Below are positions 5,643-49,310 of a DNA stretch of 64,000 bases, in pieces; positions within the stretch are counted from its first letter, which is position 1, and every line of letters starts with the position of its first letter. The position numbers and the translations under genes are program-made. The DNA is taken from positions 5,103 to 69,102 of the forward strand of contig CAYYKL010000004.1 of NCBI GenBank assembly GCA_964441155.1, read 5' to 3'. The notes below the pieces were generated by a model. The model did not search any database, was not told where the DNA came from, and was given only the letters and a program-made list of their open reading frames with translations. Origin of the DNA: an uncultured Pseudomonadales bacterium (GTDB lineage: Bacteria > Patescibacteriota > Microgenomatia > UBA1400 > RBG-16-45-19).

Positions 5643-8116
5643 AACACAACGAAACACTGTATAGTGCAAAACAAAACGGTTTGACTACTGTAAAAACAGT
5701 CAAGTATTTTATTGGACAAGCCATATTCTACGCGGCCAACTACGGGTATGTCGTGTTATTGAGCAACCAATTGGCAGCAACTGATTTTGGCAGACTTAGT
5801 TTGTTCACTGCGTTTTTCATGTTATTGTCGGTGCCCACGAATGCAATTCAATTATTATTAATCACCTATTTAGCCAAGTTTTCTCAAGTAAAATCCCAGT
5901 CGCGCATCGAATCTGTCTTAAGGCTTGCTCGTAAATACAGCGTTGCGATCGGGAGTCTTATTTTGGGTGCCTACCTCATTACCATTCCGGTGATGCAACA
6001 ATATTTTCACATCAACGCCTTTACACCATTCATATTGCTCGTGCCCACCATAATACTGCTATTCACCTCATCGTATTACAAAGGAATTCTTCAGGGTCAG
6101 TTCCGTTTTGATGCCATGGGTGTAGTTATGGCAACGGAGGGTATCGCCAAAATCTTGTTTGCCTTACTAGCTGCTTGGTTTACCCATTCCTATATTGTCT
6201 CTCTCGCCAGCTTAACCTTTTCAATCTTCATTTCTACAATCGTTGCATTTATATTCACCTATTCCAAGAAAAAAGTGGCGACGCCTTCTTTATTGTTAGA
6301 GAAATCACTCAAAACAGAAATGCGCCTGTTTTTGGCCCAAGCAGGATTAGTTTCAGCCGCGTTATTGGTTATGACACAAATCGATGTGATTATGGCGAAT
6401 CATATTTTGGATAGTGCCGGCATTGGAACTTGGGGGCTTTTGTCTGTGGCAGGCAAAAGCATGATTATGGGCGGTGGGATTTTATCGAGCATTTTCTTAC
6501 CCGCACTTGCTGCAAAGGCGGGCACTCGCAAAGTGAGTCCCATCTTCCGCAAAGGTTTTGCGGCAGTAAGCGCGTTTGTGCTGGGTTGCATCGGAGTTAC
6601 TTTTTTGTTTGCCACGCCTTTATCCCAAATCATTTCTGGCGGCAATCAAAGTGTGGCTCAATGGTTATTTTTCTACACCTTGGCCGCTGGCATGATTACG
6701 CTGACCGCGTATATTATTAACAGCCAAATTGTTTTAAAAGAATATTTATTTGCGCTGCCTCCGCTTGTCCTCACCTTGTTGTATGTTTATGTGCTTTCGA
6801 TATTCTCGTGGGATTTAGAGTCTAGTTTATACGCATACTTCAGCTATGCCACAGCACTTCTTACTTCAAGCTTGGTCTTTTTTATGTTGCGCTATGCAAA
6901 ACCACATCTCCTTGATGTTGCTGGCCTGTTTAAACCCTCGTATGCAATTCATGAAGTAAAAGATAATCGGCTGAAAATTCTCGTGCTCAATTGGCGCGAC
7001 ACCAAACACGTTTGGGGTGGGGGAGCCGAAGTCTATGCGCAAGAACTGGGCAAACGCTTGGTGGAAAACGGCGCTCATGTAACCCTTTTTTGTGGGAACG
7101 ATCTTCATAATTTGCGCGAAGAGACCATTGATGGCGTTAATATTATTAGGCGAGGCGGCTTCGTGACCGTTTATTTCTGGGCCATGATCTACTATGTTTT
7201 CCGCTTTAGAGGCAAATTCGATTGCATTCTCGATTGTGAAAATGGAATACCATTCTTCAGCGCACTCTATACCAATACGCCTGTAATCTTATTGATTCAT
7301 CATGTCCACCAAGAAATTTTTAGAGAACATTTATTCCCGCCATTTTCTTGGTTGGCTCAATTTTTAGAAGCCCACCTTATGCCCTACGTATATCGCAACT
7401 CAAAAATTGTGACGATTTCAGACTCAACTAAAAAAGATATTCGCCGACTTGGTTTGAAAGTTCACGACGTGCCTATCGTGCACAATGGCATTTCCCTCGA
7501 TGAATTCGTGCCTGGTGAAAAATCGCCAGAACCCTTGGTTGTGTATGTTGGCAGATTGAAAGCCTACAAGCGCCTTCCCGATCTAATTGCCTGTGCTCGA
7601 TCTCTCCAGCAACGCCTGCCCAAAGTTACGTTTGTGATTGCGGGTGACGGCGAAGAATCAAATCGACTAAAAAAGCTGGTTCGCCTCTATAATCTCGAGT
7701 CGGTGATTTCGTTTACCGGCTACATTACGCCACAAGAAAAAATTGCGTTGTATCAAAAGGCTTGGGCCGTCATGAACCCTTCGTCCATGGAAGGCTGGAG
7801 CATAACCACCATTGAAGCCAATGCCTGCGGTACACCAGTAGTGGCTGCCAATGTCCCCGGTTTGCGCGATTCGGTGAAGCACAGACAAACTGGCTTACTT
7901 ATTACCATGGGTGATATCGAAGGCTATTCTCAAGCTTTATTCTCGCTATTAACTAACTCAAGCTTACGGTCAACGATGTCTGCAAACGCAAGGGAATGGT
8001 CAGAAGAATTCACCTGGGAAAAGAGTGCGCATCAATTTTTGGAAATAATCTCGGACAACAGTCACAAACTTCACCGCGCAATTGATTCGCTCACCTTAAG
8101 CAAGTTCTCTCGCTAA
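5639..8116 (+). CDS. Fusion protein: N-terminal Wzx-like (MOP family) polysaccharide flippase and C-terminal GT4 glycosyltransferase
   Basis: About 430 aa of multi-TM sequence carries the ...DFGRLSLFTAFFMLL... polysaccharide-biosynthesis-protein signature. It is followed by ILVLNWRDTKHVWGGGAEVY...EGWSITTIEANACGTPVVAANVPGLRDSV, the GT4 EX7E region. The start overlaps the upstream gene by 4 nt (ATGA). Confidence 0.65.
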   Translation: MKHNETLYSAKQNGLTTVKTVKYFIGQAIFYAANYGYVVLLSNQLAATDFGRLSLFTAFFMLLSVPTNAIQLLLITYLAKFSQVKSQSRIESVLRLARKYSVAIGSLILGAYLITIPVMQQYFHINAFTPFILLVPTIILLFTSSYYKGILQGQFRFDAMGVVMATEGIAKILFALLAAWFTHSYIVSLASLTFSIFISTIVAFIFTYSKKKVATPSLLLEKSLKTEMRLFLAQAGLVSAALLVMTQIDVIMANHILDSAGIGTWGLLSVAGKSMIMGGGILSSIFLPALAAKAGTRKVSPIFRKGFAAVSAFVLGCIGVTFLFATPLSQIISGGNQSVAQWLFFYTLAAGMITLTAYIINSQIVLKEYLFALPPLVLTLLYVYVLSIFSWDLESSLYAYFSYATALLTSSLVFFMLRYAKPHLLDVAGLFKPSYAIHEVKDNRLKILVLNWRDTKHVWGGGAEVYAQELGKRLVENGAHVTLFCGNDLHNLREETIDGVNIIRRGGFVTVYFWAMIYYVFRFRGKFDCILDCENGIPFFSALYTNTPVILLIHHVHQEIFREHLFPPFSWLAQFLEAHLMPYVYRNSKIVTISDSTKKDIRRLGLKVHDVPIVHNGISLDEFVPGEKSPEPLVVYVGRLKAYKRLPDLIACARSLQQRLPKVTFVIAGDGEESNRLKKLVRLYNLESVISFTGYITPQEKIALYQKAWAVMNPSSMEGWSITTIEANACGTPVVAANVPGLRDSVKHRQTGLLITMGDIEGYSQALFSLLTNSSLRSTMSANAREWSEEFTWEKSAHQFLEIISDNSHKLHRAIDSLTLSKFSR

Positions 8117-8132
8117 AAAAACTGGCTCGATT

Positions 8133-9107
8133 TTAGAGGTTGTCGTACGAAAAGTTTTTGGTGGTTGGCGACATTTGCCAAAGATGCAATTTCTTGTTGT
8201 TTGGGACCATCATGCATTTTGTTAGTGTTACACTCAATAGGAGCGCATAGATGAGTGCATAAGCGGGATGAGAAACCACTGCTTTAATTGCTGAAAGTAC
8301 CAAGAGAATCTTGGGAATGTGATACCAATTCACCTGATTTTTAGCTGGGGACAATTTCTTTTTTGATTTTTTGGCGAGGAAAAATCTAGAGCTTTGACGC
8401 ATATGGTCTTCTAATGTTTGTGGAGAGGTATACCAAACCCTAGCGATTGGCGCGAAAGCAAAATCAAAGCCAAAATGCTTGGCTTTCATATACGAATAGG
8501 CGTCTTCACCGGCAATTCCCGGCCAACGAAGTTTACGATACAATTTTCTTGAAAAAGCTCGGGCTCTACCGTGACACATGTACACAGTGTCTCCGTGGTT
8601 TATTTTTTGAAACAATTCGTTTTTCCATTCATGATGCCAGTCGAGTACTTTACCAACTAATGAACTATTTTGTGACAAGGGGATTATTTTGGCACCAACC
8701 AATCCAATGTTTTCTTTCGAAATAAGTGGCAAGCAAAGTCCTTGCAAAAATGTTTTGTTCACGGGCAAAATATCTGCGTTAAGCAAAACTACAATATCAG
8801 TTCTTGCAAGAGAAAAGACTTGATTTTGCCGTTGAGAAGCCCCGATTCTCCTTCTGCCCACAATTACCTTGATGCGCGAATCATCCACGCTTTTTGCTGC
8901 GCGCACTGTCTCGTCATCACTTGCATCAGAAATGACAATGATTTTTTCAAGCGCAAAGTCTTTTAATTGCTGCTTCAGGATACATTCGAGCAAAACAGCA
9001 ATATGAGCAGATTCATTGTACGCGGGAATTCCCACCGTGATTGAAAGCTTCTTCTGAAGGGATGTTGTTTTTTTCATGCGCAGTGAATAGGTGGCTAAGA
9101 ATAGCAA
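8133..9107 (-). CDS. Family-2 glycosyltransferase
   Basis: ITVGIPAYNESAHIAVLLECILKQ...IIVISDASDDETV. It is a paralog of the ORFs at 10677 and 11627. Confidence 0.75.
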   Translation of the reverse strand: MLFLATYSLRMKKTTSLQKKLSITVGIPAYNESAHIAVLLECILKQQLKDFALEKIIVISDASDDETVRAAKSVDDSRIKVIVGRRRIGASQRQNQVFSLARTDIVVLLNADILPVNKTFLQGLCLPLISKENIGLVGAKIIPLSQNSSLVGKVLDWHHEWKNELFQKINHGDTVYMCHGRARAFSRKLYRKLRWPGIAGEDAYSYMKAKHFGFDFAFAPIARVWYTSPQTLEDHMRQSSRFFLAKKSKKKLSPAKNQVNWYHIPKILLVLSAIKAVVSHPAYALIYALLLSVTLTKCMMVPNNKKLHLWQMSPTTKNFSYDNL

Positions 9108-9372
9108 ATGTTTGCTTATAAGTGTTATATATATATTGTTATAAGCTTATATGTCAAGGAGCGCACTCCACAAATCAAGGTTTGTTCAGCTCTGTTTCAC
9201 CTATATATAAGACTTATTTTGAGCAAAATCGTTTCTAATTTCAAAGCGTATAGTAAATAATACTATTATGAATAATAGCATAACCTCTATATATATTTCT
9301 AAAGTATTTATAGCCTTGTGTATACCTATATAATGACTTATAATACGCTTTAATAACTATATATACAGGCCT

Positions 9373-10680
9373 ATGCAAGCATCAAGAAATTATCGTATTG
9401 GAGTGGTGGGAACTGGCTTTATTGCCAAGGGGTTAATCCACGCGCTCAACGACCATCCACAGCTTCAGGTAAGCAGCGTGTTAACGCGCCGGCCTATTCA
9501 AGGGGTCAATAACGTTCCCGTACCTCACTCAATCATAACCCAAGACATTGACAAGGTAATTAAGTCATCTGATTTAGTCGTGGAATGCACCGGCGATACG
9601 ATTCATGGCACCGATGTCATCGAAGCGGTTATCCGCGAAGGTTTGCCTGTAGTTACCATGAATCCTGAACTACACATTGTCTCGGGTACCAAGCTCTCTC
9701 AAAAGGGAACCGTTATTGAAGCCGAGGGTGATCAGCCCGGCACACTAGCAGCACTCGATATTGAACTTAAAGATATGGGTTTTGAACCCATTGTCTATGG
9801 CAACATCAAACGATTTTTAAATCTCAATCCAACTCGTGAAGACATGGAATATTGGTCGAAACGGCAAGGGATAAGCCTCAACATGGTGACTTCATTTACG
9901 GACGGTACAAAAGTGCAAGTTGAACAAGTTTTAGTGGCTAATAATTTAGGTGCGACCATCGCGTGCCGTGGCTTATCCGCCATTAATTGCATCAATCATG
10001 AAGACGGTGCGCTGCGCCTGGCTGAAATTGCTGAGAGCTACCATCAACCCATTAGTGATTATGTGGTTAGTCCCACGGCGCCTGCTGGAGTATTTATCGT
10101 TGCCAGGCATTCAGGCAAACAACAACCCTACCTGCAATACTTAAAGCTCGGAGATGGTCCTCATTACGTTATTATTCGCCCGTATCACCTGTGTCACTTG
10201 GAAATCCCCAAAACAATCATGAAAGTGTTAACGGGAAGTCAACGTTACACTTTTAATAATGGTGGTAAGCCAGTGGCGCAAGTGGTGGCAGTTGCTAAAA
10301 AACCCTTGGCTGCAGGCGATAAATTTGCTAAAGCTGTTGGTAGTTTTGAATTGCGCGGAGAAGCAGTGCTTATTGACGCTCATTCTCAGGCTGTTCCGAT
10401 AAGCCTTATGGATAACGCTGTGCTTAAAAAAGCCATAGAGCCCGGAGAAATCATAACCTTCGCTGATGTGGAATTGCCCCCATCACGAGCATTAACTCTC
10501 TGGCACGAAACGCTCGCAGATTTGGGCCATAAGCAAATCTACAAAAAACCAGTTGAGCGTAAACGCCCGCCAAAACCGAAAAGAACCACTATTATCCCTG
10601 AACCATATTTTAAGCCATCGTTGATGTATCGCGTCAGTCAATGGTTTTTTAAAGTACCTTCCGGAAGAATTGCCTCATGA
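9373..10680 (+). CDS. NAD(P)-binding oxidoreductase with a C-terminal SAF domain (COG4091-like 'predicted homoserine dehydrogenase with SAF domain')
   Basis: N-terminal Rossmann motif RIGVVGTGFIAKG. The C-terminal region KPLAAGDKFAKAVGSFELRGEAVLID resembles a SAF domain. It sits inside the glycosyltransferase operon. Confidence 0.45.
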   Translation: MQASRNYRIGVVGTGFIAKGLIHALNDHPQLQVSSVLTRRPIQGVNNVPVPHSIITQDIDKVIKSSDLVVECTGDTIHGTDVIEAVIREGLPVVTMNPELHIVSGTKLSQKGTVIEAEGDQPGTLAALDIELKDMGFEPIVYGNIKRFLNLNPTREDMEYWSKRQGISLNMVTSFTDGTKVQVEQVLVANNLGATIACRGLSAINCINHEDGALRLAEIAESYHQPISDYVVSPTAPAGVFIVARHSGKQQPYLQYLKLGDGPHYVIIRPYHLCHLEIPKTIMKVLTGSQRYTFNNGGKPVAQVVAVAKKPLAAGDKFAKAVGSFELRGEAVLIDAHSQAVPISLMDNAVLKKAIEPGEIITFADVELPPSRALTLWHETLADLGHKQIYKKPVERKRPPKPKRTTIIPEPYFKPSLMYRVSQWFFKVPSGRIAS

Positions 10681-11600
10681 AAAACAAGCTGCCTACCGTA
10701 ACCATCGGCATTCCTGCCTACAATGAAGAAGCCAATATTGGAAATCTTTTATCAGACATAAAAAAGCAGGAAACCCAGACTTTTAGGCTTAAAAAAATTG
10801 TGGTTGCTTGTGATTCACCTAGTGATCATACGTTTGAAATTGTTAAACGCCATGCCCGGCGCAATAAAAAAATAGAGATCATCAATGGCCACAAACGACT
10901 TGGTCAAACAACCAGGCTTGGTCAATTATTTTCTATGACTGAAACAGATTATCTCGTTTGCTTTGATGCCGACGTGGCTTTGGTAGACCCCAAAGTCATT
11001 GAGAAATTAATTCAACCGCTTGAGGACCAAAAAAGCGTCGGATTAGTTGGAGCAAATTTGCAACCAGCGAAAGCCGAAAATCTTTTTGAACACGCGATGA
11101 ATACGATGTTTGAAATCTGGTATAAAGTTCGTCTTCAGCACCAAAGTGGCAATAATATTTTCAGTCATTTAGGTGCCGCTTTCGCTATTAGAAGTGAATT
11201 GGCTCATGCCATTCATTTCCCTAGCTTTATCGTGGCTAATCAACACTTTTTGTATATCAGTGTTTTGCGCAAAGGGTGGCGCTTTGCCTTTGCTCGAGAG
11301 GCGCGAGTATTGTTCCGATCACCGTCGTGTTTTGCTGATTATCACGTCCAGGCAACTCGACCATTTACGGAAAAGGAGCAAATATTTGCGTATTTCGGTA
11401 ATGGTGTGAAAAGTTTGTTTGCAATACCAATGTCATATAAAACAAAAGCAATTTTGCTTACCTTTTTACAAAGCCCCTTGCTAACGAGCCTGGGATTGAC
11501 GTTATTCGCCTGGATTCGCGTGTATACCCACTTAACCATTGCCAAAAAACAAACAGTTTTGTGGGACACACCATTTTCCACCAAACGAGCAGTGGCCTAA
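10677..11600 (+). CDS. Family-2 glycosyltransferase
   Basis: TVTIGIPAYNEEANIGNLLSDIKKQ...VVACDSPSDHT. It shares the C-terminal ...WDT..STKR motif with the next ORF, so the two look like tandem paralogs. Confidence 0.75.
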   Translation: MKNKLPTVTIGIPAYNEEANIGNLLSDIKKQETQTFRLKKIVVACDSPSDHTFEIVKRHARRNKKIEIINGHKRLGQTTRLGQLFSMTETDYLVCFDADVALVDPKVIEKLIQPLEDQKSVGLVGANLQPAKAENLFEHAMNTMFEIWYKVRLQHQSGNNIFSHLGAAFAIRSELAHAIHFPSFIVANQHFLYISVLRKGWRFAFAREARVLFRSPSCFADYHVQATRPFTEKEQIFAYFGNGVKSLFAIPMSYKTKAILLTFLQSPLLTSLGLTLFAWIRVYTHLTIAKKQTVLWDTPFSTKRAVA

Positions 11601-11626
11601 AAAATACTACGCAATAAGGATTTGCT

Positions 11627-12541
11627 ATGAAGACTAAAAAAATAACTATTGGAATTCCCACCTATTACGGCGGTCCATCACTGGTTGAAACGGTTAGAAG
11701 TATCCGTGCAAGCAGTAACTATTCGGATGCCTTAGTTGTGGTTTGTGTCGATGGTGTGCCGCTAAAAAAACCAATAGAAAAAGCATTGCAGGCACTTAAT
11801 GTCGATATCGTATTCAGCGAAGTTCGCGGTGGCCAAGTTGCCCGGATTAAACAAATTATTGGCATGTGTAAAACTCAATTTCTCGTACTTACCCAAGACG
11901 ACATCATCCTTGATGCTCAATCGCTTGAAAGAATTGTGGCGGAGTTTGATCAAAATCCAAAAACGACAATGGTTGCGGCATGTGAATTACCCACCAAACC
12001 AATAATGCTATTTGAAAAAATATTGGCTTCTGGATACGAAAGTGCCCTATGGATTGGCGAACATTGGAACAACGGGGACAATTATTTACTACCCAGTGGG
12101 AGATGCTTAGCTTTTCGCACGGCTCACGCGCAAAAATTTTCTTTACCCGAAGAAATTATTAATTCAGATACCTATCTGTATTTTGAAAATAAGCGCCTTA
12201 AAGGGTTGTGTCGGTATGTGAAGAGTGCAGTTGTGTATAATCCGCTGCCGCAAAAACTAAAAGAGCACATCAATCAAAGCCGTAAGTTTGCAATTTCTCA
12301 AGCAGAAAACCAACGCTATTTCAAACGAGATTTGAACCGTGAATATGCCATCCCCACATCTCTAAAAGTGATGGGCTTGATCCGATCACTTAGCAAACAA
12401 CCGCTATACACGGTGGCTTATCTGACAATTAATGTTTACACCCGAATTGCAGGTAGAAATTTATTTAAAAACGCCACCCGTTTTTGGGATACAGACAGCT
12501 CTACCAAAAGGCTTAAATCGAGCATGACCGCAGGAAAATAG
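11627..12541 (+). CDS. Family-2 glycosyltransferase-like protein (divergent)
   Basis: KITIGIPTYYGGPSLVETVRSIRAS...VVVCVDGVP, with the C-terminal FWDTDSSTKR. It is a paralog of 10677..11600. Confidence 0.55.
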   Translation: MKTKKITIGIPTYYGGPSLVETVRSIRASSNYSDALVVVCVDGVPLKKPIEKALQALNVDIVFSEVRGGQVARIKQIIGMCKTQFLVLTQDDIILDAQSLERIVAEFDQNPKTTMVAACELPTKPIMLFEKILASGYESALWIGEHWNNGDNYLLPSGRCLAFRTAHAQKFSLPEEIINSDTYLYFENKRLKGLCRYVKSAVVYNPLPQKLKEHINQSRKFAISQAENQRYFKRDLNREYAIPTSLKVMGLIRSLSKQPLYTVAYLTINVYTRIAGRNLFKNATRFWDTDSSTKRLKSSMTAGK

Positions 12542-12571
12542 ATTTTCCTGACAACGTGCTCAACTTTCGAT

Positions 12572-14086
12572 ATGAAGACATTACTAGCCGCACTATCGCT
12601 TTGCTTCTTTTCAGCCCTCTTGCTAGGACTTACGGTGAGAGGCAATTGGGGCAATCCGCGACCAAGTGAGATATCTACCCATCTCGTTCAACAAGGTGAG
12701 GTTTTCGAGTCAACCCTTTCGCGTGGGCGCTATGCACAAACCATGGCATTAGTAGAAGATAAAGTGGCAAATCTAACAAACGGAAAAGAATTGGTGGCGT
12801 TACCAGACGCAGGGTATGTCTCTGATAGAGTATATCCTTTATTTGCTCCGGGCCTTGCATTTTATATGGCACCTGCCTACATGATTGGTGCTTATTTTAA
12901 CGCCAATCAAATAGCAGTGTTTTCCTTTATGTCGTTGATAAGCCTTTGCTCAGTCATGATGCTGTTTGGTATACAAAAAGCAATCCGCATTCCTAGTTGG
13001 GCTGCCTGGTTTTCCAGTTTTGCCTTTTTATTCGGCACGAGCGCATTTCCCTATGCAGTAACCATTGCCCAACACAACGCAACGGTACTTTGCCTTTTGC
13101 TTATGTTGCTTGCAGGTATAAAGGGTGCTAGCAAGCCCTGGCTTTATATTTTCGGCTGGCTCGCCTATGGACTGGCAATATTTATGGATTATCCTAATCT
13201 ACTTCTATTGCTTCCCGCAGCTATTTACATGGGTTTAAGTAGCGCAACGATAATAAAAAACAAGCGAGATACAACCATTCGCTTGAAGTTGGCAGCCCTT
13301 TACTGTGTGGTCTTTTTTATGGTGGTTAATGGGTTGCATGGCTGGTATAACCAGGCTCACTTTGGCTCATTTAAGAATATTGGAACTTCGGTCTATACCC
13401 GAGTCCAAAATATGCAAGAGTTGCGGGATATTCGTGCCAACCCATTAGCACTTGAGCCAATTGCAGATACAAGACGTGTATCATCATCGCTCTTTCATCC
13501 GAGCAATTTGCCCAGAGGCATGGTTGTTTTGCTTTTCAGTTTAGATCGTGGCATCATTTTTTACGCGCCAATCGTACTTCTAGGTTTAGTGGGAATCTAT
13601 GGGCTGAGCAAATCAAAAGAGTTTTCTCGTTTGAGTGTGGCTCTTGCTATTACTATGGCCACTAATCTTGTCCTGTATGGCTCATTTGGTGATCCTTGGG
13701 GTGGTTGGGAATATGGACCGAGGTATCTTATACCAAGCATGGCAATACTAGCTGTTGGCCTCGGTAAAAGTCTCGCTGACATTAAAAGCCTTTGGTATCG
13801 ATTGTTAGCATTGCTTATCTTTGTCTATTCTTCCACCATAAACACCTTTGCCGTTCTCACCACCAATCAATCAATACCGAGCGTTGAATCAGGTGTGATG
13901 GAATTTGCATTTGTGCATAAAATTTCGCTGTTAAAAAATGGCATGATTTCAAGTTTTGCTTATCGAGAATGGTTACGTAATTACATGACTGAATACCAAT
14001 TTTTTATCGTGATCATGACTATAATCGTGATCGCTGCTTATTTAAGCCTTCTTATTGCGCCATTATTTGATCGGGAAAAAAGATAG
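12572..14086 (+). CDS. Integral-membrane GT-C-type glycosyltransferase (PMT/ArnT-like, PMT_2 family)
   Basis: 504 aa with about 11 predicted TM segments. The first extracytoplasmic loop ...EVFESTLSRGRYAQTMALVED... resembles the DE..RYA..A motif of the ArnT/PMT family. Confidence 0.45.
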   Translation: MKTLLAALSLCFFSALLLGLTVRGNWGNPRPSEISTHLVQQGEVFESTLSRGRYAQTMALVEDKVANLTNGKELVALPDAGYVSDRVYPLFAPGLAFYMAPAYMIGAYFNANQIAVFSFMSLISLCSVMMLFGIQKAIRIPSWAAWFSSFAFLFGTSAFPYAVTIAQHNATVLCLLLMLLAGIKGASKPWLYIFGWLAYGLAIFMDYPNLLLLLPAAIYMGLSSATIIKNKRDTTIRLKLAALYCVVFFMVVNGLHGWYNQAHFGSFKNIGTSVYTRVQNMQELRDIRANPLALEPIADTRRVSSSLFHPSNLPRGMVVLLFSLDRGIIFYAPIVLLGLVGIYGLSKSKEFSRLSVALAITMATNLVLYGSFGDPWGGWEYGPRYLIPSMAILAVGLGKSLADIKSLWYRLLALLIFVYSSTINTFAVLTTNQSIPSVESGVMEFAFVHKISLLKNGMISSFAYREWLRNYMTEYQFFIVIMTIIVIAAYLSLLIAPLFDREKR

Positions 14087-14087
14087 T

Positions 14088-15719
14088 ATGAACTTCAAAT
14101 TTAGTGGCTCAAGTTTTCAATTAACCCTGCCTCATGCACCTTGGCAAAGATTTGCAAGTGTTTTTAACCGTCAGAGCACTAACATCGTGCTGGCATTAAG
14201 CGTCTTATTTTCCTGGATCAGTTGGTTTTACTATTTCTCAAATGGAAACAACTTGGCTTATAACGATGCGATGTCTCACCTTGATATTGCCCGTAGAGTT
14301 TATGACAATCTTACTCCAGGTGCAGCTCAGCTGGGCAGCGTTTGGTTGCCACTTTCCCACGTGTTAATGCTACCTACCATTTGGATTGATTTTTTCTGGC
14401 GATCAGGATTCTCTGCTGCAATTGTATCCATGATTGCTTACAGCATCACAGTCGTAGCCATTTTCAAAACCAGTAAATCTTTGGGGCTTTCAACCAAAGC
14501 TTCATTAATTGCTGCAGCGGTGACGGGATTAAATACCAATTTTTTATACTTACAAACAACTGCCTTAACCGAGCCACTCTTTATGGCATGCGCGAGTATG
14601 TCTCTGTATTACTTGGCAGTATGGGTAAAAAGTAATCAATTATACAGCTTAATTGGTGCCGCGTTTTGGATTATGTTGTCAAGCTTAACCCGATATGATG
14701 GCTGGGCGTTACTAGGATTATCGGGCATTTGCGTAGTTGTTATTTCGTATCTTCGAACTAAAAAATATAAAGTATTAGAAGGAAACGCAATTCTTTTTGG
14801 AACCCTAGCTGGATTGGGCATTGTATTATGGTTGGGCTGGAATTACATGATTTTTGGTAATCCACTTTATTTTGCCACCGGAGAATTTTCGGCAAAAGCT
14901 CAGCAAGATATTTTAGAAGCAGCTAATGATTTACCCACCAAACATAACTTATGGATATCATTTATAACGTATGTCTATGCCATGATCAGCAATATTGGCT
15001 TAATCAGTATAGTGATTGCCTGTTTTGGCTGGATACTCTTTCTAAAACAAAAATTGGCCACTTACAAAGTGTTGGCTCTGGCATTTGCAGCGCCGCTTAT
15101 TTTCAACATACTGGCTCTTTATTTAGGTCATTCTGTCATTCATTTACCTGAATTGTTCGGTGCCAGCTGGTTTAATGTCCGCTACGGCCTCATTGTTTTG
15201 CCATGGGTTGCTATCGGAGTCGCCTATGTCTTTGAACAGAAAAGTGTCTTGGCTAAATCACTCGTTCCTTATCTGTTATTTTTGCAAATTGGAATGTTCT
15301 TTAATAACCGTTATATCGTGACCGTTGATGATGGTCTTTGGGGTTCGAGTCAAAAAAATGTAAAACAAGTAGGTCTATTCATTAATGAAAAAATTGGTCC
15401 TACCAACCAACCGATATTAGTTTCTGTTGCCTCGCACGATGCCATTCTTTTTCAAAGTGGACTTCCGATGAAACGATTTATCCACGAGGGAACAGGAGAT
15501 TTCTGGGACGAGGCACTCATTGATCCCGATCAATTTGCACCATATGTTCTCATGCGCACCCACGATAATCTCGATTCTGTTGCCAGAGAAATGGATAAAG
15601 TTCCTGGCTTTTTTGAGCGCTACGAACTACTTTATGACGATGAATATGCCGATGTCTATCAACGCAAACTTCCAGATTCAATCACTATGAGCGAAGCGGG
15701 GGATAATGAAGCCAATTAA
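14088..15719 (+). CDS. Integral-membrane GT-C-type glycosyltransferase (PMT/ArnT-like) with a C-terminal soluble domain
   Basis: Multi-TM N-terminal region with ...YNDAMSHLDIARRVYDN... in its first loop, then about 150 aa of soluble C-terminus. The ORF track starts it at 14055, overlapping the upstream gene; ATG 14088 immediately after the upstream stop is the more likely start. Confidence 0.45.
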   Translation: MNFKFSGSSFQLTLPHAPWQRFASVFNRQSTNIVLALSVLFSWISWFYYFSNGNNLAYNDAMSHLDIARRVYDNLTPGAAQLGSVWLPLSHVLMLPTIWIDFFWRSGFSAAIVSMIAYSITVVAIFKTSKSLGLSTKASLIAAAVTGLNTNFLYLQTTALTEPLFMACASMSLYYLAVWVKSNQLYSLIGAAFWIMLSSLTRYDGWALLGLSGICVVVISYLRTKKYKVLEGNAILFGTLAGLGIVLWLGWNYMIFGNPLYFATGEFSAKAQQDILEAANDLPTKHNLWISFITYVYAMISNIGLISIVIACFGWILFLKQKLATYKVLALAFAAPLIFNILALYLGHSVIHLPELFGASWFNVRYGLIVLPWVAIGVAYVFEQKSVLAKSLVPYLLFLQIGMFFNNRYIVTVDDGLWGSSQKNVKQVGLFINEKIGPTNQPILVSVASHDAILFQSGLPMKRFIHEGTGDFWDEALIDPDQFAPYVLMRTHDNLDSVAREMDKVPGFFERYELLYDDEYADVYQRKLPDSITMSEAGDNEAN

Positions 15720-17001
15720 ACGATTTCTATCAGTGGCTATCGCCAGTTTTGTGGTGCTTTTTCCACATAAGGTGCATGCTGAGGCTCAACCTCGCTTGTG
15801 GAATATTCAATCAATCGACACCATGAAGATATCCCGAGATCGTTCAAAACAACAATTTAGCGATCAGCAAATAATTAATGAGTTAGAACTCGTAAAAAAC
15901 GCAGGTGCAAACTACGTCGGCATTGCCACTCCTTATGATGAAGAATTCTATCCAGTGCTCAAGCGATGGAGTGATTTAGCCCATCAAATGGGATTGTCAG
16001 TTTGGTTTAGAGGGAATTTTTCTGCTTGGGAAGGCTGGTTTGGTTATGAAAAAAACATGACTCGACAAGAGCATCTTACAAAAACCAAAGCTTTTATCCT
16101 GGCACATCCCAATCTATTCCAAGATGGAGATAGTTTTACTGGATGTCCTGAATGTGAAAATGGCGGTCCAGGCGATCCACGCACGACCCGAGACCATGTA
16201 GGACATAGACAGTTTTTAATTGACCAGTATGAAACAGCCAATGCTGCCTTTAAACAAATCAATAAACAGGTCGAAACAAATTGGTTTTCAATGAATGGAG
16301 ATATTGCTCGATACGTTATGGATAAAGCGACCGTGGATAAACTTGGTGGGCTGATAACTATCGATCACTATGTCGCCACACCAGAACAATTTGAAGCTGA
16401 TTTACTAAAGTTGCACACTGAGCTTGGTGCAAAAGTGCTTCTTGGAGAAATTGGCGTGCCTATTCCGGACATTCATGGCTCTCTTACCAAAGATGAGCAG
16501 GCGACACTTTTACCCAAATATCTGGATGTCATGTTGAAACATCAGAATTTTGTCATTGGCTTTAATTACTGGACACATCATGATGCTTCAACCGCAATTG
16601 CCAATAGTCAATTGCAGCCATATCCTGCCTATTACCGCTTGCAAGACTATTGGCAACCAGGGACCGTAAAAGGGCATATCGCTAATAATCTCATGGATCC
16701 TCTCTCAAACGCACAGATTAGTCATGCTTACGGCAACGCTCTGACGGATGAGAACGGTGATTATGAATTACTCCTTCCGGTAGGCGAATACGACTTAACG
16801 GTAAGTCGTGATGGTTATATCAGCCAAACGCACCGCGTAAAAATATTTGAATATTCCACCATGGATTTACCAATTTTTCTCGAACCACAAGAGCCAGGTT
16901 TTTGGTATAAAGCTAGAGAACGAATGCAACAATTGCTTGAGAATATGCGTCCAATTTCTCAACTTCCCCAACGGTTTCGACAGTTATTGTCAACGCGGTA
17001 A
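15706..17001 (+). CDS. Secreted TIM-barrel glycoside-hydrolase-like protein (clan GH-A-like) with a C-terminal carboxypeptidase-regulatory-like domain
   Basis: Signal peptide MKPIKRFLSVAIASFVVLFPHKVHA. ...VLLGEIGVP... resembles the GH-A nucleophile motif. C-terminal DENGDYELLLPVGEYDLTVSRDGYISQTHRVKI is a CarboxypepD_reg-like motif. Confidence 0.45.
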   Translation: MKPIKRFLSVAIASFVVLFPHKVHAEAQPRLWNIQSIDTMKISRDRSKQQFSDQQIINELELVKNAGANYVGIATPYDEEFYPVLKRWSDLAHQMGLSVWFRGNFSAWEGWFGYEKNMTRQEHLTKTKAFILAHPNLFQDGDSFTGCPECENGGPGDPRTTRDHVGHRQFLIDQYETANAAFKQINKQVETNWFSMNGDIARYVMDKATVDKLGGLITIDHYVATPEQFEADLLKLHTELGAKVLLGEIGVPIPDIHGSLTKDEQATLLPKYLDVMLKHQNFVIGFNYWTHHDASTAIANSQLQPYPAYYRLQDYWQPGTVKGHIANNLMDPLSNAQISHAYGNALTDENGDYELLLPVGEYDLTVSRDGYISQTHRVKIFEYSTMDLPIFLEPQEPGFWYKARERMQQLLENMRPISQLPQRFRQLLSTR

Positions 17002-17054: not shown

Positions 17055-17579
17055 CTAAATCGCAATAGCTCGGACGATTAAGCGCTTAGAATCTAGAAAG
17101 CCCGAGCAGGTATAGAGCGTTAGCGTGGGCTCCATGGTTTGTTGAATCCAAGAGATATCACTGGGATTTACTTCGGTAATGTGTTCAATTCGATAAGTAT
17201 GTTCGTTCTGGTTTTGATCGGTGACACTTATCCATTCGCCTGTTTTCAGTTCATCGAGTGACCCAAAAATGTGGGGATAGTTGTGGCCATAAATCACCAC
17301 ATTGCCGCCTGTCCCCAAACCAGCTGATTCACTTAAATAATTGCCCATGGTGTTGTCGACATACCAGGTGCCATCTGAAAGCTCGGTTCTCACCAAATTG
17401 ATATGTTTGCCTGAAGGCAATTTAATTTTCACCGGCAACAAGCGTTGTTCGAAGACCGGGCTTGAAATTCTAGGCGGCTGCTCTGTCCCTATAGTAATTA
17501 GACCTGAAGCAATAAACATCAAACCTATAACAAATAGGATTCGTAATGTATTTCGATAAATACGGGAACGCTTTGCCAT
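17055..17579 (-). CDS. Sortase (class E-like transpeptidase)
   Basis: N-terminal TM anchor, the conserved IYGHN histidine block, and the LTLYTC active-site cysteine (TLxTC). It lies immediately downstream of a LAXTG substrate gene. Confidence 0.75.
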   Translation of the reverse strand: MAKRSRIYRNTLRILFVIGLMFIASGLITIGTEQPPRISSPVFEQRLLPVKIKLPSGKHINLVRTELSDGTWYVDNTMGNYLSESAGLGTGGNVVIYGHNYPHIFGSLDELKTGEWISVTDQNQNEHTYRIEHITEVNPSDISWIQQTMEPTLTLYTCSGFLDSKRLIVRAIAI

Positions 17580-17604: not shown

Positions 17605-18330
17605 TTACCGAGATTTTCTTGAAGCTATCCATGAGCCAAAGCTGAGCACTAAACCGGAAAACATTTTGATTGCGTCGGCATAGCCTGATCCCGTAAATGC
17701 GAGCTCGACAGCGGCAGCCACCTCATTTTGTGTTTCAGTCGTGTTCGAAGTCGTGCTTGCGCTTGTTCCACCAACACCAGAGCTAGTTGATGGCTGAGTC
17801 GTTGGTGTAGGTGTCGGATCAGGAGATTGTGTTGGGGTTGGACCAGGGATGGGTGTGGGAGTTGGCTCAACATCACCACATACAAATGACGTGTTTTGAG
17901 CTAAATATCGATAATCACCCAAATTCCATTGAAAACCATTTTCCACAAACCAGCCTTGCAATTCAGCTAATGTTTTCCACCAATTTGTTTGAATGCCATC
18001 ACTACCTTCTTCGGGGCAAAAGCATTGCACATAATTACCATTTTCCAAGGAATAGACGTCGTCACTTCCATATAACAATGGACCACCTACAATTTGATGC
18101 CAGCCTTGCTGCCAACTTGCGTGATCTCCTGGGTTTTGCAACAGTTCTTGACAAGCTGGAAATGAAGCTTCCGTTTCAGGAGTTGGTGTGGGTGTTTGAG
18201 TTGGTGTGATTTCAATCGAAGCAGACTCGCTTGAGTCAGTGGCTCGAACCAGATTAACGCCTTGCGCAAACGCACCAGACATCAGTACACTAGTGAATAA
18301 TAAGCTTGAAAAAAGTTTAGAGTTAGTCAT
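17605..18330 (-). CDS. Sortase-anchored surface protein (LAFTG sorting signal) with Pro/Thr-rich linkers and a Trp/Cys-rich central domain
   Basis: Signal peptide. PTQTPTPTP and PTPTPIPGPTPTQSPDPTPTPTT linkers. C-terminal LAFTG, then a hydrophobic stretch and an SRKSR tail, which is a canonical cell-wall sorting signal (LAXTG is the class E sortase motif). Confidence 0.7.
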   Translation of the reverse strand: MTNSKLFSSLLFTSVLMSGAFAQGVNLVRATDSSESASIEITPTQTPTPTPETEASFPACQELLQNPGDHASWQQGWHQIVGGPLLYGSDDVYSLENGNYVQCFCPEEGSDGIQTNWWKTLAELQGWFVENGFQWNLGDYRYLAQNTSFVCGDVEPTPTPIPGPTPTQSPDPTPTPTTQPSTSSGVGGTSASTTSNTTETQNEVAAAVELAFTGSGYADAIKMFSGLVLSFGSWIASRKSR

Positions 18331-23163: not shown

Positions 23164-24282
23164 ATGCAAATTAAATCTGCCCATTTATTAGGCGTCGCTG
23201 CCAGCTTCTTTCTAGCACTCGCAATGCTCGTTCCTGGAGCTCAAGCAGCACAAGTAAAAAACTTAAGCATAACCTTAAGTGATCCTAGACCGAATCCAAC
23301 AAGCACAACGCACACGTATTTGTTCACTCACGTGACTGCTGCAACACTCAAAATGATCAATTTTGAATACTGCACCACCCCGTCTGGAACATGCACTGCC
23401 CCTGCAAACGTTAACACCAGTTCTGCAACCGAAGGTACCCTAAGTGGTATTACGGCGGCACAATGGACATTAAACGTAGGTGTGGCTGCAAACCCCAAAC
23501 TTCAGCACACAGGTGCCGGAGAAGCCGTTTCAGGAAATACCGTTATGTCGCTTGGAATCGGTACAGTAACCAACCACGCAATTGATGACTGCCAGGCTGC
23601 TGGAGACACGTCGTCTGATACCTGTTATGTCCGTGTTACCTCGTGTACAGAAGTCACGAACTGTTCGTCTTCTGTCGCAACTAACAAGACTGATGAAGGT
23701 ATCGCCTCCTATACAGTCGTAGCCGCCGTCACGGTGACCGCTCGTGTTGATCCAACCTTTACGTTTGTGGTTAACTCAGTGGCTGCCAGCCAAGTGAACA
23801 ACGAAATCACGACTTCAGTTGCAAGTACGTTTAGCACGCTGCCTTTCGGCAACTTGACTGCCGGCACACCCAAATATGCCGCGCATCGCTTAAACGTGAC
23901 TACTAATACGCAAGCTGGATACACGGTATCCAACCGTATGGTAACTGCCATGACAGGTGTGTACGCAGGCAATAACATTGATCCGTTCACGCATGCCTGG
24001 AGTGCTGCCGCTGTCTGGACCGAACCAACGGGAACGGCCGCAAGCGTCAACACCGGCTGGGTCGGTGCGAATACAACCGACACTGATGTAGCCAACTGGA
24101 CCGCTGGTATGGCTCAAAAGTTCGGCGGTGTTACGAGTTCGGCTCAAACCGTCATGCAATCAAGCACCTCAGACAATGGTTCTAGTGGTGTCTATGTAAC
24201 TTATGCTGTAGAAGCGAATGTGTACCAACCAGCTGATACCTACACTGGTGTCCTGGTCTACAACGCTCTACCGACGTACTAA
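23164..24282 (+). CDS. Secreted Thr/Ser/Ala-rich surface protein; its C-terminal ~175-aa domain is paralogous to the C-terminus of ORF 24473..27316
   Basis: Signal peptide MQIKSAHLLGVAASFFLALAMLVPGAQA. The strong SD GGGAGGTG lies 7 nt upstream. The C-terminal ...ITTSVASTFSTLPFGNLTAGTPKYAAH...NNIDPF...WTEPTG...VYVTYAVE...PTY aligns with the end of the next gene. There are many N-x-S/T sequons. Confidence 0.6.
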   Translation: MQIKSAHLLGVAASFFLALAMLVPGAQAAQVKNLSITLSDPRPNPTSTTHTYLFTHVTAATLKMINFEYCTTPSGTCTAPANVNTSSATEGTLSGITAAQWTLNVGVAANPKLQHTGAGEAVSGNTVMSLGIGTVTNHAIDDCQAAGDTSSDTCYVRVTSCTEVTNCSSSVATNKTDEGIASYTVVAAVTVTARVDPTFTFVVNSVAASQVNNEITTSVASTFSTLPFGNLTAGTPKYAAHRLNVTTNTQAGYTVSNRMVTAMTGVYAGNNIDPFTHAWSAAAVWTEPTGTAASVNTGWVGANTTDTDVANWTAGMAQKFGGVTSSAQTVMQSSTSDNGSSGVYVTYAVEANVYQPADTYTGVLVYNALPTY

Positions 24283-40914: not shown

Positions 40915-40922
40915 CGGCGATA

Positions 40923-42167: not shown

Positions 42168-42239
42168 CTTCGGTAGTGTAGCATTCGAAGTGAGCGACTT
42201 AAACTGAAACGTGACTTACGTATTGGCAATGGAATTCAA

Positions 42240-43896: not shown

Positions 43897-43919
43897 ACTA
43901 GATTCATACCAAATAGTTT

Positions 43920-44615: not shown

Positions 44616-44621
44616 ACATCC

Positions 44622-45539: not shown

Positions 45540-45663
45540 ACACTACTCCAAATGTGCTCACAAGAAGTGACAACTATTTCAAATAACTCCCTCCGCGCGC
45601 CATGCGCTCACTATTTATTGGGTTATAATGGACACTGATGATGAAAAAGCCACATCATTTAGC

Positions 45664-45736
45664 GCCGGAGTAGCTCAGTTGGTAGAGCAATGGTATCGTA
45701 AACCATGGGTCGTGGGTTCGAATCCCACCTCTGGCT
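45664..45736 (+). tRNA. tRNA-Thr (anticodon CGT)
   Basis: GCCGGAGTAGCTCAGTTGGTAGAGCAATGGTATCGTAAACCATGGGTCGTGGGTTCGAATCCCACCTCTGGCT folds as a cloverleaf. Anticodon loop ATCGTAA. Confidence 0.85.
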
Positions 45737-45809
45737 CACACACAAACTCGCATCGATGCATGAAAAAACAAATGAATGTTTAATCAAAAAGTATTGATAG
45801 AATTAACGT

Positions 45810-49301: not shown

Positions 49302-49310
49302 AGTGATGCA

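Follow-up and report, generated by a model that had tools for sequence, protein, structure and literature searches.

Two tandem genes for polytopic membrane proteins, followed by a gene for a secreted glycoside hydrolase, lie in the 64,000-nucleotide stretch of DNA analyzed here (the window), and raise the question of which acceptor such enzymes would serve. A first-pass annotation had read them as a protein O-glycosylation system or a periplasmic-face glycan decoration system. This reading was supported in part, with glycan decoration favored and protein O-glycosylation less likely. We propose, with modest confidence, that the three proteins form an extracytoplasmic complex that decorates and remodels a synthase-made surface polysaccharide.

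A conserved gene trio

The three open reading frames, referred to as P1, P2, and P3 (Table 1), were found exactly where the first-pass annotation had placed them, and they are real genes, as shown by their many strong homologs (48 clusters for P1, more than 2427 for P2, and more than 1415 for P3). The most likely start codon of P2 is ATG 14088 and not TTG 14055; an identical database protein (P0049) has 543 aa, and the L002 gene calls concur with this ATG.

The trio ends a tightly packed gene run (9373–17001) and is a conserved unit. Among 80 loci from GTDB species representatives, P1 is followed by P2 in 67 of 72 loci and P3 comes next in 56 of 65, with median gaps of −11 nt (P1–P2) and +3 nt (P2–P3). 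At least 346 species-representative genomes carry a P1 relative, those credibly labelled being all CPR; the trio also turns up in Woesebacteria, in a complete genome, and in Gottesmanbacteria. Every pairwise natural fusion exists: P1::P2 (P0357), P2::P3 (P0062, L043), and P1::P3 (L082/P0388).

Table 1. Features of the trio and its neighborhood (window positions; residue numbers refer to the encoded protein).
Feature	Position	Strand	Description or basis
GT2	2486–3289	−	Soluble, 267 aa; NCBIfam, sub-threshold
Double GT2	3456–5642	+	728-aa fusion, conserved first cassette gene; two Pfam GT2 domains
Wzx/MOP-like + GT4	5639–8116	+	825-aa fusion; PF01943, GT4 matches, TM scan
GT2	8133–9107	−	324 aa, C-terminal TM helix; Pfam GT2, TM scan; divergently transcribed
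DRL-type NAD-dependent oxidoreductase	9373–10680	+	DRL_cat 121.7 bits, NAD_binding_3, SAF domain
GT2	10677–11600	+	307 aa, C-terminal TM helix; Pfam GT2 77 bits, TM scan
GT2	11627–12541	+	304 aa, immediately upstream of P1; Pfam
P1	12572–14086	+	504 aa
P1 outer-face motifs			E46; R51-G-R-Y-A55; D79; D206-Y-P-N209; D374-P-W-G-G-W379; R384-Y385
P2, mechanical ORF	14055–15719	+	554 aa from TTG 14055
P2, preferred call	14088–15719	+	543 aa from ATG 14088
P2 motifs			Loop 1 Y58-N59-D60..S63-H64..R69-R70; R202-Y-D-G-W206
P2 C-terminal domain	15318–15716	+	Residues 411–543, ~130 aa, acidic, predicted extracytoplasmic
P3	15706–17001	+	431 aa
P3 signal peptide	15706–15780	+	Residues 1–25
P3 clan GH-A (β/α)8 barrel	15793–16659	+	Residues ~30–318
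P3 candidate acid/base	16150–16158	+	E149 or E151 after β4; secondary-structure position
P3 candidate nucleophile	16447–16449	+	E248 on β7; secondary-structure position
P3 further barrel residues			H221-Y222 on β6; Y288-W289 on β8
P3 CarboxypepD_reg β-sandwich	16663–16881	+	Residues 320–392
Sortase	17055–17579	−	174 aa, N-terminal TM helix; PF04203 73.5 bits
Sortase substrate	17605–18330	−	241 aa; sequence features

Two GT-C glycosyltransferases and a putative glycosidase

P1 is a GT-C glycosyltransferase: its family has no Pfam model, and the GT-C fold was found with ArnT and ALG12 as best structural matches. P2, judged by its PMT_2 and PMT matches and its profile link to P1, is a GT-C enzyme as well. 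It matches PMT_2 at 28.3 bits (cutoff 26.1), a model matched by 17 of 42 family members (PMT by 6 of 42), and hhalign relates the P2 and P1 profiles with 82% probability (E 1.1e-5, 278 columns). The suggested search with PMT_2, PMT, and STT3 models was positive for P2 (PMT_2) but not for P1, and neither protein matched STT3 in Pfam even at E ≤ 1. The DE/RYA-like first-loop motifs described for both proteins are real in part. In P1, E46 (47 of 48 members), R51 (48/48), R53 (41/48), Y54 (39/48), and A55 (40/48) are conserved and D79 is invariant, while P2 has an invariant Y58-N59-D60…S63-H64…R69-R70.

P1 is predicted to span the membrane with 12 helices, both termini inside, and P2 with 11, its N-terminus inside and its C-terminal domain (net charge −5.6; invariant D415, H450-D451, H466-E467, R490, and D496) outside. 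In both families the cytoplasmic loops are net positive and the motif-bearing loops neutral or acidic. The fusion linkers fit this topology: an extra TM helix is found in P1::P3 only, and the P2::P3 fusions, which lack a hydrophobic linker, were counted as evidence on P2. The gene in the slot directly upstream of P1 (GT2, GT4, PIG-L or CE4 deacetylase, or kinase) is fused to the cytoplasmic N-terminus of P1 in other genomes; the enzymes fused there are processors of sugars on the inner face.

The proposed architecture of P3 was confirmed throughout. Its hydrophobic N-terminal signal recurs in 47 of 48 homologs, the CarboxypepD_reg match exceeds its threshold (35.6 vs. 32.3 bits), and the GH-A fold was recovered. 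E149/E151, H221-Y222, E248, and Y288-W289 are invariant and lie on β4, β6, β7, and β8 as in the 4/7 superfamily, and a C-terminal helix is poorly conserved. P3 falls in no existing Pfam GH family.

The upstream cassette

The double GT2 lies upstream of P1 in 45 of 55 loci. In its N-terminal half, a GtrB/DPM1-like GT-A domain (DAD95) precedes two TM helices, and the NCBIfam matches, all sub-threshold, are to AglJ, Dol-P-hexose transferase, PgfS, and ArnC. The C-terminal half, a GT2 of the processive synthase type (DAED433, TED527, QRSRW564), has more TM helices behind it and gives sub-threshold matches to PgaC/IcaA and CelA/BcsA over residues 291–707. QxxRW and [TS]ED are kept in 35 of 41 homologs. 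The 825-aa protein, found in 40 of 55 loci, has about 10 TM helices at residues ~20–400 and is a candidate flippase for a lipid-linked sugar; its GT4 matches are strong, and PF01943 scores 24.5 bits, below the cutoff of 28.2, with an unmarked match (E ≤ 1e-5) in the L004 ortholog. No GtrA flippase was found here. This absence and the sub-threshold GT-A and Wzx-like matches are counted against the reading favored here.

The DRL oxidoreductase, first gene of the packed run, is accessory (about 9 of 80 related loci), and a promoter-like site before it (9307–9334) is not above chance. The first-pass annotation had also invoked DPM-synthase-like GT2s, which holds weakly. The soluble GT2 at 2486–3289, a possible donor supplier by its matches, scores far below all NCBIfam cutoffs (PgfS 68 bits, ArnC 53.5, Dol-P-hexose transferase 41, PpgS 33), and the 728-aa N-half is likewise sub-threshold. 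The three small GT2s next to P1 resemble PgaC- or HpnI-type enzymes more. The GT22-like gene at 31152 is genuine (PF03901, 121.5 bits) but lies outside the cassette, among central-metabolism genes.

Alternative acceptors

In a Pgf- or PMT-like protein O-glycosylation system, P1 and P2 would transfer sugars from polyprenyl-phosphate-sugars to Ser/Thr residues of disordered linkers, the target proteins being secreted or sortase-anchored, e.g., the sortase substrate beside the trio. In this protein a signal peptide precedes a four-Cys globular domain of ~110 aa, and a 33-residue PT-rich linker (153–185) leads on to LAFTG, a TM helix, and a tail with RKSR; of the three proteins cited as Thr/Pro-rich surface proteins it alone qualifies, those at 23164 and 24473 having neither PT-rich tract nor sorting signal. 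Also in favor, family members match Pfam families named for protein O-mannosyltransferases (PMT_2, PMT, TMEM260-like), and PgfS is the best match of the soluble GT2. A similar set, one GT-A and two GT-C proteins, makes up part of the Pgf system of S. mutans, with outer-face catalytic residues predicted and sortase-anchored Ser/Thr-rich adhesins in the cluster (PMC5856776). The sortase gene is loosely linked to the cassette: one lies ≤7 kb downstream of P1, with an LAxTG protein near the trio, in 13 of 56 loci. By our estimate this exceeds chance expectation, which leaves room for a protein-related role. However, no sortase is nearby in 43 of 56 loci. Most of the 16 homologs of the LAxTG protein encoded beside the trio have LAxTG, a TM helix, and basic residues at the C-terminus, but cassette-linked LAxTG linkers vary in composition, are PT-rich in only 2–3 of 17, and are often Gly-rich, some with an S+T fraction of 0–0.06. 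Both the rarity of nearby sortases and these linkers make O-glycosylation less likely than glycan decoration. P1 and P2 moreover show neither a YfhO match nor MIR domains in Pfam, and the trio is coupled to a processive synthase and both coupled and fused to a glycosidase; we know of no role for a glycosidase in known protein O-glycosylation. We consider this explanation unlikely.

PimE, MptA/B, Aft, and Emb elongate LM/LAM and arabinogalactan on the outer face, and P1 and P2 could similarly elongate, in succession, a membrane-anchored lipoglycan or glycolipid whose chain length P3 sets; we regard this as improbable. Alternatively, P2 or P1 could act like an oligosaccharyltransferase or ligase, moving a Wzx-flipped undecaprenyl-PP-oligosaccharide en bloc onto wall, protein, or polymer, the acceptor being recognized by the outer domain of P2. 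Against this stand the lack of an STT3 match, of a WWDYG-type motif in the P2 consensus, and of a priming phosphoglycosyltransferase within the window, together with the best structural matches, ArnT and ALG12, whose donors are monosaccharide-P-lipids. This seems to us very unlikely.

Relation to characterized systems

Glycan decoration finds its closest parallels in three-component wall-polymer systems (GtrA/GtrB/GtrC, CsbB/GtcA/YfhO, GacI-J/GacK/GacL), in which a GT-A polyprenyl-P-sugar synthase, a flippase, and a polytopic GT-C act on a surface polymer at the outer face, within surface-polysaccharide clusters of variable glycosyltransferase content; multi-component transmembrane glycosylation uses GtrA- or Wzx-type flippases (PMC8035078). 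Here, in contrast, two tandem GT-Cs of unclassified families are obligately coupled to one another and to a GH-A glycosidase, with fusions between these partners in some cases. The GtrB-like GT-A shares a polypeptide with a processive synthase, GtrA is missing, and no curated family cutoff is reached. The ArnC/ArnD/ArnT lipid A aminoarabinose pathway (ArnT, GT83; PDB 5f15) differs in acceptor and lacks the glycosidase partner; neither the P1 nor the P2 profile showed a sequence relation to E. coli ArnT (hhalign probability <1%), and the YFEKP motif is absent.

Pgf (PgfS, PgfE, PgfM1, PgfM2) shares the enzyme complement and nearby sortase-anchored protein noted above, but PgfM1/PgfM2 are YfhO-type, an epimerase is absent here, the trio has a glycosidase among its members and is itself linked to a synthase, and only roughly one locus in four has a sortase substrate, with linkers inconsistently Ser/Thr-rich. 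Synthases with a cognate GH5 hydrolase exist (CcsZ; PMC7710045), but BcsA/BcsZ, clostridial CcsA/CcsZ-GH5, and PslG systems have no GT-C, whereas the hydrolase here is tied to GT-Cs and belongs to none of the Pfam GH families. As in the yeast Pmt1-Pmt2 and mycobacterial EmbA-EmbB heterodimers, distantly related GT-C paralogs adjoin and are occasionally fused (P0357), and P2, like Emb and Aft enzymes, has a predicted extracytoplasmic C-terminal domain. Unlike in those pairs, a P1–P2 complex is suggested only by fusions and synteny, and no MIR or CBM domains are recognizable by sequence.

A proposed pathway

From the folds, the conserved gene order, the natural fusions, the conserved motifs, and the predicted topology, we infer donor type, acceptor identity, a physical complex, and the activity and substrate of P3 as follows. 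The C-half of the double GT2 would be a processive, membrane-embedded synthase that polymerizes and extrudes a β-linked backbone, which would make a priming phosphoglycosyltransferase unnecessary; its product could, however, be unrelated to the GT-C acceptor. Polyprenyl-phosphate-sugars would be made on the inner face by the N-half and/or the soluble GT2, variable neighbors (GT2, GT4, deacetylases, kinases, DRL oxidoreductase) may modify the donor sugars, and the Wzx-like domain of the 825-aa protein would flip them. The paralogous GT-Cs would then use acidic and basic motifs on the outer face (E46, R51, D79, DYPN, and DPWGGW in P1; ND60, SH, RR, and RYDGW in P2) to attach these sugars to the extruded polymer. 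P3, a putative retaining glycosidase or transglycosylase of clan GH-A that would dock to the GT-Cs, would trim, release, or re-link the polymer. Overall, the trio would complete the surface polysaccharide encoded by its own cassette.

Gene organization and conservation of the trio

The genes for two GT-C membrane proteins (P1 and P2) and a secreted GH-A-fold protein (P3) close a co-directional, near-contiguous run that also holds a DRL-type oxidoreductase and two GT2s. The three open reading frames placed here by the first-pass annotation were recovered, with P2 running from a TTG at 14055 to 15719 (554 aa); the ATG at 14088 is the likely start of P2 because P0049, a database protein identical to it, has 543 aa and the gene calls on the same organism's other contigs agree. 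This ATG lies 1 nt from the P1 stop, and the P2 and P3 genes share 14 nt. A scan for promoters and terminators found nothing above shuffled expectation, so the operon structure rests on gene spacing and synteny. The window has a GC content of ~42%, seven tRNAs and one sortase.

Coordinates of the trio, its cassette and other features of the window
Feature	Position (nt)	Strand	Description
GT2	2486-3289		
Double GT2	3456-5642	+	728-aa fusion
Wzx-like::GT4	5639-8116	+	825-aa fusion; Wzx/MOP-like polytopic domain and GT4
Small GT2	8133-9107	-	
Co-directional run	9373-17001	+	P3 last
Small GT2	10677-11600		
Small GT2	11627-12541		
P1	12572-14086	+	504 aa, GT-C
P2	14088-15719	+	543 aa, GT-C
P2 C-terminal domain	15318-15716	+	residues 411-543
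P3	15706-17001	+	431 aa, GH-A fold
Sortase	17055-17579	-	
Sortase substrate	17605-18330	-	signal peptide, LAFTG
Secreted paralog	23164-24282		
Secreted paralog, larger	24473-27316		Laminin_G_3 domain
GT22-like gene	31152-32648		third GT-C in the window
WxL-interacting-protein peptidoglycan-binding domain protein	36291-37241		C-terminal TM anchor
Dockerin protein	37337-38578		secreted; ends in type I dockerin domain
Second glycan locus	38621-54313		Wzx/Wzy type
GT4s of second locus	38621, 39748, 49323, 50413		
Methyltransferases of second locus	42240, 43920		
Kinase-like gene of second locus	42916		
GT2s of second locus	44622, 48489, 53384		
GT2::Wzy_C fusion	46510-48552		680 aa; O-antigen ligase/polymerase domain
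Polysacc_synt_3 flippase	51619-52860		
PGA_cap family protein	55458-56552	-	CapA-like poly-gamma-glutamate capsule synthesis, 172 bits

Relatives were located with one P1 peptide pattern across GTDB species-representative genomes, at least 346 of which carry one; credible record titles among them include Roizman-, Gottesman-, Woese-, Doudna-, Giovannoni- and Dojkabacteria, Saccharimonadales and Parcubacteria. The window's nearest relatives are all uncultivated Patescibacteria, to which the trio is restricted as far as sampled. Many trio-bearing TPA metagenome-assembled genomes (e.g., L013, L016, L047) are titled 'uncultured Gammaproteobacteria/Pseudomonadales' and have CPR-like gene content, and one trio genome so titled is a 0.94-Mb 'chromosome'; these labels appear unreliable. 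An exhaustive profile search recovered 424 representative clusters of the P1 family at E<=1e-30 and 5093 at E<=1e-10; the 48 P1 matches from a word-indexed search are an underestimate due to limited sensitivity.

Among 80 loci fetched, P2 lies downstream of P1 on the same strand in 67 of the 72 with sufficient flank, and P3 follows P2 in 56/65, with a median gap of -11 nt between P1 and P2 and of +3 nt between P2 and P3. Gottesmanbacteria and a complete Woesebacteria genome of 1.27 Mb keep this order, as do loci in which P1 is only 31-32% identical to that of the window. Natural fusions join every pair: P1::P2 (P0357, 1065 aa), P2::P3 (P0062, 918 aa; L043, 941 aa) and P1::P3 (P0388/L082, 954 aa); P0289 is a tandem P1::P1 protein. 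These fusions are strong Rosetta-stone evidence of joint function, and the three proteins probably form a physical complex. Functional names for P1, P2 and P3 homologs were absent from the public sources searched: most listed homologs are unnamed, and the few names given are 'hypothetical protein', the label of a domain and, twice, 'Glycosyl transferase family 2'. Exact-sequence cluster look-up of the three proteins gave neither names nor accessions, and a literature search on GT-C or glycosylation systems in Patescibacteria/CPR found nothing relevant.

P1 and P2 are remote paralogs of the GT-C class

P1 and P2 are GT-C proteins by fold or clan, P1 being polytopic with a structure that superposes on the conserved GT-C module (GT-C_A), and by sequence they are not members of ArnT, PMT, STT3 or YfhO. 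By hhalign, the P1 and P2 profiles align over 278 membrane columns (probability 82%, E 1.1e-5), and the two are therefore remote paralogs. Both had been labelled PMT/ArnT-like from the sequence; P2 narrowly passes Pfam PMT_2 (PF13231; 28.3 bits against a threshold of 26.1), P1 has no Pfam match, and neither profile aligns with E. coli ArnT. PMT_2 is matched by 17/42 P2 relatives and by only 3/48 P1 family members, and PMT (PF02366) weakly by 6/42 P2 relatives. P1 has only a sub-threshold match of 45 bits, to the Leptospira LA_3751/LA_3752 'putative glycosyltransferase' family. Sequence and profile searches against the PDB gave no relative of P1 and nothing useful for any of the three proteins.

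Several established families could be set aside. Orthology to ArnT was rejected, with both profiles at an hhalign probability below 1% against E. coli ArnT. The first periplasmic loop of ArnT carries the functional motif 42-RYA-44 and a YFEKP motif (PMC5377068); the RYA-like motif attributed to both proteins is present in P1 (R53-Y54-A55), which lacks YFEKP, but P2 has neither. Membership of PMT/GT39 was likewise rejected, as the window's P1 and P2 have no PF02366 match and no detected MIR domain, and P2 has N-D in place of D-E. Nor do they belong with STT3/PglB/AglB, since neither matches any STT3 model or shows the STT3 Pfam domain and WWDYG-type motif. YfhO and Wzy_C, either of which would have counted against the reading of the first-pass annotation, are matched neither by P1 and P2 at E<=1 nor by their family members; YfhO is itself a GT-C family (PMC8035078). 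The acidic first-loop residues expected of orthologs are conserved (P1 E46 in 47/48 and D79 in 48/48; P2 D60 in 42/42), with a predicted location on the outer face, and the donor of both proteins would be a polyprenyl-phosphate-linked sugar.

Topology was derived from AF2 helices for P1 and from hydropathy for P2, with loop charges counted over both family alignments. P1 is predicted to have 12 TM helices and to begin and end in the cytoplasm; for P2 the prediction is 11 helices, a cytoplasmic N-terminus and an extracytoplasmic C-terminus. Every proposed cytoplasmic loop has a net charge of +0.1 to +2.6, while the motif-bearing loops are neutral or acidic (-1.1 to +1.1) and the ~130-aa C-terminal domain of P2 has a net charge of -5.6. 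The predicted outer face thus defined carries E46, R51-G-R-Y-A55, D79, D206-Y-P-N209 and D374-P-W-G-G-W379 of P1, and Y58-N-D60, S63-H64, R69-R70 and R202-Y-D-G-W206 of P2. The natural fusions are an independent test of this model and are consistent with it: no hydrophobic segment joins the parts of the P2::P3 fusions (P0062, L043), and the P1::P3 fusion (L082) keeps one additional TM helix after a basic stretch, as the model requires if the GH domain and the P2 C-terminus are outside and the P1 C-terminus is inside.

The putative extracytoplasmic C-terminal domain of P2 is unusually conserved. In an alignment of 42 sequences only 41-78% identical to the window's P2, D415, G419, S421, N424, S446, S449, H450-D451, H466-E467-G468, R490, D496, D522 and Y524 are invariant, a pattern closer to that of an active or metal site than to that of a plain binding module. 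Pfam and the PDB gave no match to the domain, which is duplicated in one relative (P0165).

P3 is a secreted GH-A protein outside the Pfam glycoside hydrolase families

A secreted hydrolase with a CarboxypepD_reg domain had been proposed for P3, and the secretion signal and the domain were borne out: the domain scores above threshold, and P3 and 47/48 homologs have an N-terminal hydrophobic signal. P3 has the (beta/alpha)8 barrel of clan GH-A. Residues ~30-318 have no match by sequence, no Pfam GH family model matches the window's P3 significantly, and the PDB gave no hit by sequence or profile, leaving the catalytic domain without a sequence relative among solved structures. Among 48 family members, GH matches are faint (Glyco_hydro_cc in 3, E 2e-3; Cellulase/GH5 in 1, E 1e-3). 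P3 is thus GH-A by fold and lies outside every existing Pfam GH family.

Candidate catalytic positions were judged from secondary structure. The invariant E149 and E151, 5-7 residues past beta4 (143-144), are candidates for the acid/base, and the invariant E248, in G-E-[FWI]-G on beta7 (243-249), for the nucleophile; H221-Y222 lies on beta6 and Y288-W289 on beta8, with H221-Y222 and W289 following a GH5-like pattern. As judged in this way, these candidate residues sit where a 4/7-superfamily enzyme would need them. A CxxC pair flanks the candidate acid/base (C147-P-E-C150-E-N-G) and is otherwise invariant, but the L043 P2::P3 fusion (11536-14361) has Ala instead (PAPEAENGG) and retains both Glu; the pair is therefore probably structural (e.g., a disulfide), not catalytic.

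The trio accompanies synthase-type and flippase-like proteins

A homolog of the double GT2 lies upstream of P1 in 45/55 loci, and a GT4- or flippase-like gene in 40/55. The N-terminal half of the double GT2 has the GtrB/DPM1 architecture, a GT-A domain with two TM helices, and sub-threshold matches to AglJ, Dol-P-hexose transferase, PgfS and ArnC; the separate GT2 at 2486-3289 scores 68 bits against PgfS (cutoff 500). The C-terminal half has the D, DxD, TED and QxxRW motifs and flanking TM helices of processive synthases (DAED433, TED527, QRSRW564; helices at 273-317 and 596-690). Residues 291-707 give sub-threshold matches to the PgaC/IcaA and cellulose synthase (CelA) NCBIfam models, and 35/41 full-length homologs retain both TED and QxxRW. 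With all hallmarks present, this half is predicted to be of the membrane-embedded processive synthase type. The Wzx-like domain of the adjoining fusion scores 24.5 bits, under the cutoff of 28.2, and is confidently matched in its L004 ortholog. Elsewhere the two fusions form a single protein of ~1550-1590 aa (L005 2171-6835; L007 1-1067, gene of 1594 aa).

No priming phosphoglycosyltransferase of the WecA/MraY or WbaP type was found in Pfam scans of essentially all large ORFs of the window. GtrA, searched with the L005 protein, is absent from the window and was found in only two further loci, three related loci in all. Together these absences fit a synthase-dependent backbone with a Wzx-type flippase for the lipid-linked sugar; the same arrangement has been proposed before, in the case of streptococcal GacK (PMC8035078). 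A cognate secreted hydrolase is common in synthase-dependent systems, and the clostridial CcsZ is a GH5 enzyme, also of clan GH-A (PMC7710045).

In other genomes the cytoplasmic N-terminus of P1 is fused to GT2, GT4, PIG-L or CE4 deacetylases, APH-type kinases or GNAT, which would make or tailor the sugar on the inner face. These fusions resemble the Arn pathway, where ArnC (GT2) and ArnD (CE4 deformylase) act before ArnT. The interval between synthase and P1 varies by locus (extra GT2s and GT4s, Rml genes, pyruvyl transferase, PIG-L; a DRL oxidoreductase in ~9/80) and looks like strain-specific glycan chemistry around conserved machinery. The L007 cassette includes RmlA, RmlB/D and RmlC, which suggests a rhamnose-containing glycan there. 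The window's three small GT2s are paralogs with a common extreme C-terminal motif, W-[DQ]-[TM]-x-x-[ST]-T-K-[RN] (VLWDTPFSTKR, RFWDTDSSTKR and HLWQMSPTTKN), preceded by a hydrophobic or amphipathic segment.

Proposed mechanism and alternatives

Given the folds, motifs, synteny, fusions and topology of the trio, the most likely mechanism is a synthase-made backbone, decoration by the GT-Cs and remodelling by P3, in which donor, acceptor, physical complex and P3 activity are all putative. The synthase half of the double GT2 would extrude the polysaccharide backbone, the GT-A domains would load sugars onto polyprenyl-phosphate, and the Wzx-like domain would flip them. P1 and P2 would then attach the flipped sugars to the polymer outside the membrane, where P3, docked on the GT-Cs, may trim, release or transglycosylate the product. 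In its workings such a module would parallel both the Arn pathway and the multi-component transmembrane glycosylation systems that act on Gram-positive wall polymers. It fits none of their curated family definitions.

The protein O-glycosylation system raised in the first-pass annotation has a precedent in S. mutans Pgf, where Ser/Thr-rich stretches of sortase-anchored adhesins are glycosylated by one GT-A and two GT-C proteins, and the adhesin genes lie within the cluster (PMC5856776). Directly adjoining P3 are a sortase and a protein that has a signal peptide, a PT-rich linker and LAFTG; homologs of the latter sit beside the trio in 13/56 loci, which by a rough estimate exceeds chance for ~1-Mb genomes, with a few more upstream of the cassette. 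However, three quarters of loci lack the sortase pair, linkers are PT-rich in just 2-3/17 substrates, several being Gly-rich with Ser/Thr nearly absent, and known systems have no place for a fused glycosidase or synthase. Of three supposed Thr/Pro-rich surface proteins only the window's LAFTG substrate qualifies, since those at 23164 and 24473 were rejected as acceptors for want of a PT-rich window or sorting motif. We consider protein O-glycosylation improbable. Lipoglycan assembly appears just as doubtful, and transfer en bloc in the manner of an oligosaccharyltransferase is very unlikely.

Most substrate homologs finish with LAxTG, a TM helix and a basic tail; LAxTG is the type of signal associated with class E sortases. 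The substrate and 16 homologs (L016-L088) have in common a globular domain of ~110 aa that has no Pfam match, in which four Cys are conserved along with motifs such as HGIvG, QCfC, GiQTNWwK and GW.yiP.Gs.WGL. The two rejected proteins are secreted paralogs with a common conserved ~60-aa C-terminal domain (...TSSAQTVM.S.S...VYVTYAVE...QPAD.Y.G...Y...PTY).

A more ambitious extension of the synthase-based mechanism, unlikely on present evidence, would make the trio a CPR-specific, obligately coupled, undescribed machine: a heteromeric GT-C pair with a docked GH-A protein of a new family that acts mainly as a transglycosylase, the complex decorating the synthase-extruded polymer and passing it on covalently, either to the wall or to the four-Cys protein anchored by sortase. 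If so, the trio would be the main route by which Microgenomates-type Patescibacteria assemble and attach surface glycopolymers, and the outer C-terminal domain of P2, in which H-D, H-E, D and R are invariant, would provide another site for catalysis or for binding the acceptor.

Other glycan-related genes in the window

The GT22-like gene, which had been grouped with the trio, has a strong Alg9-like GT22 match (121.5 bits) and no NCBIfam match. It was rejected as a module member: it lies between PEP-utilising and phosphorylase-like genes, away from both glycan loci, and was not seen in related loci. The second glycan locus is separate from the trio's. The WxL-interacting-protein peptidoglycan-binding domain protein is followed by the dockerin protein, dockerins being unusual for such a genome. 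The PGA_cap family protein adjoins an RsmB/F rRNA methyltransferase.

Implications

The Patescibacteria (CPR) envelope has hardly been characterised, yet it mediates an attached, host-dependent lifestyle. What is new here is a GT-C/GT-C/GH-A trio in fixed order, every pair of which also occurs fused; its coupling to a protein in which a GtrB-like domain and a synthase are fused; the highly conserved outer C-terminal domain of P2; and, as far as sampled, the restriction to Patescibacteria. The principle behind it is not new: the Arn pathway and Gram-positive wall polymers already follow this general logic, which the trio extends. It is an outer-face module conserved in at least 346 species-level genomes and tied together by fixed order and fusions, and it provides a testable hypothesis of a synthase-made polymer, GT-C decoration and GH-A remodelling, and defines residues that could be mutated. 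P3 may be the founder of a new glycoside hydrolase family, and new GT-C families may likewise be founded on P1 and P2.
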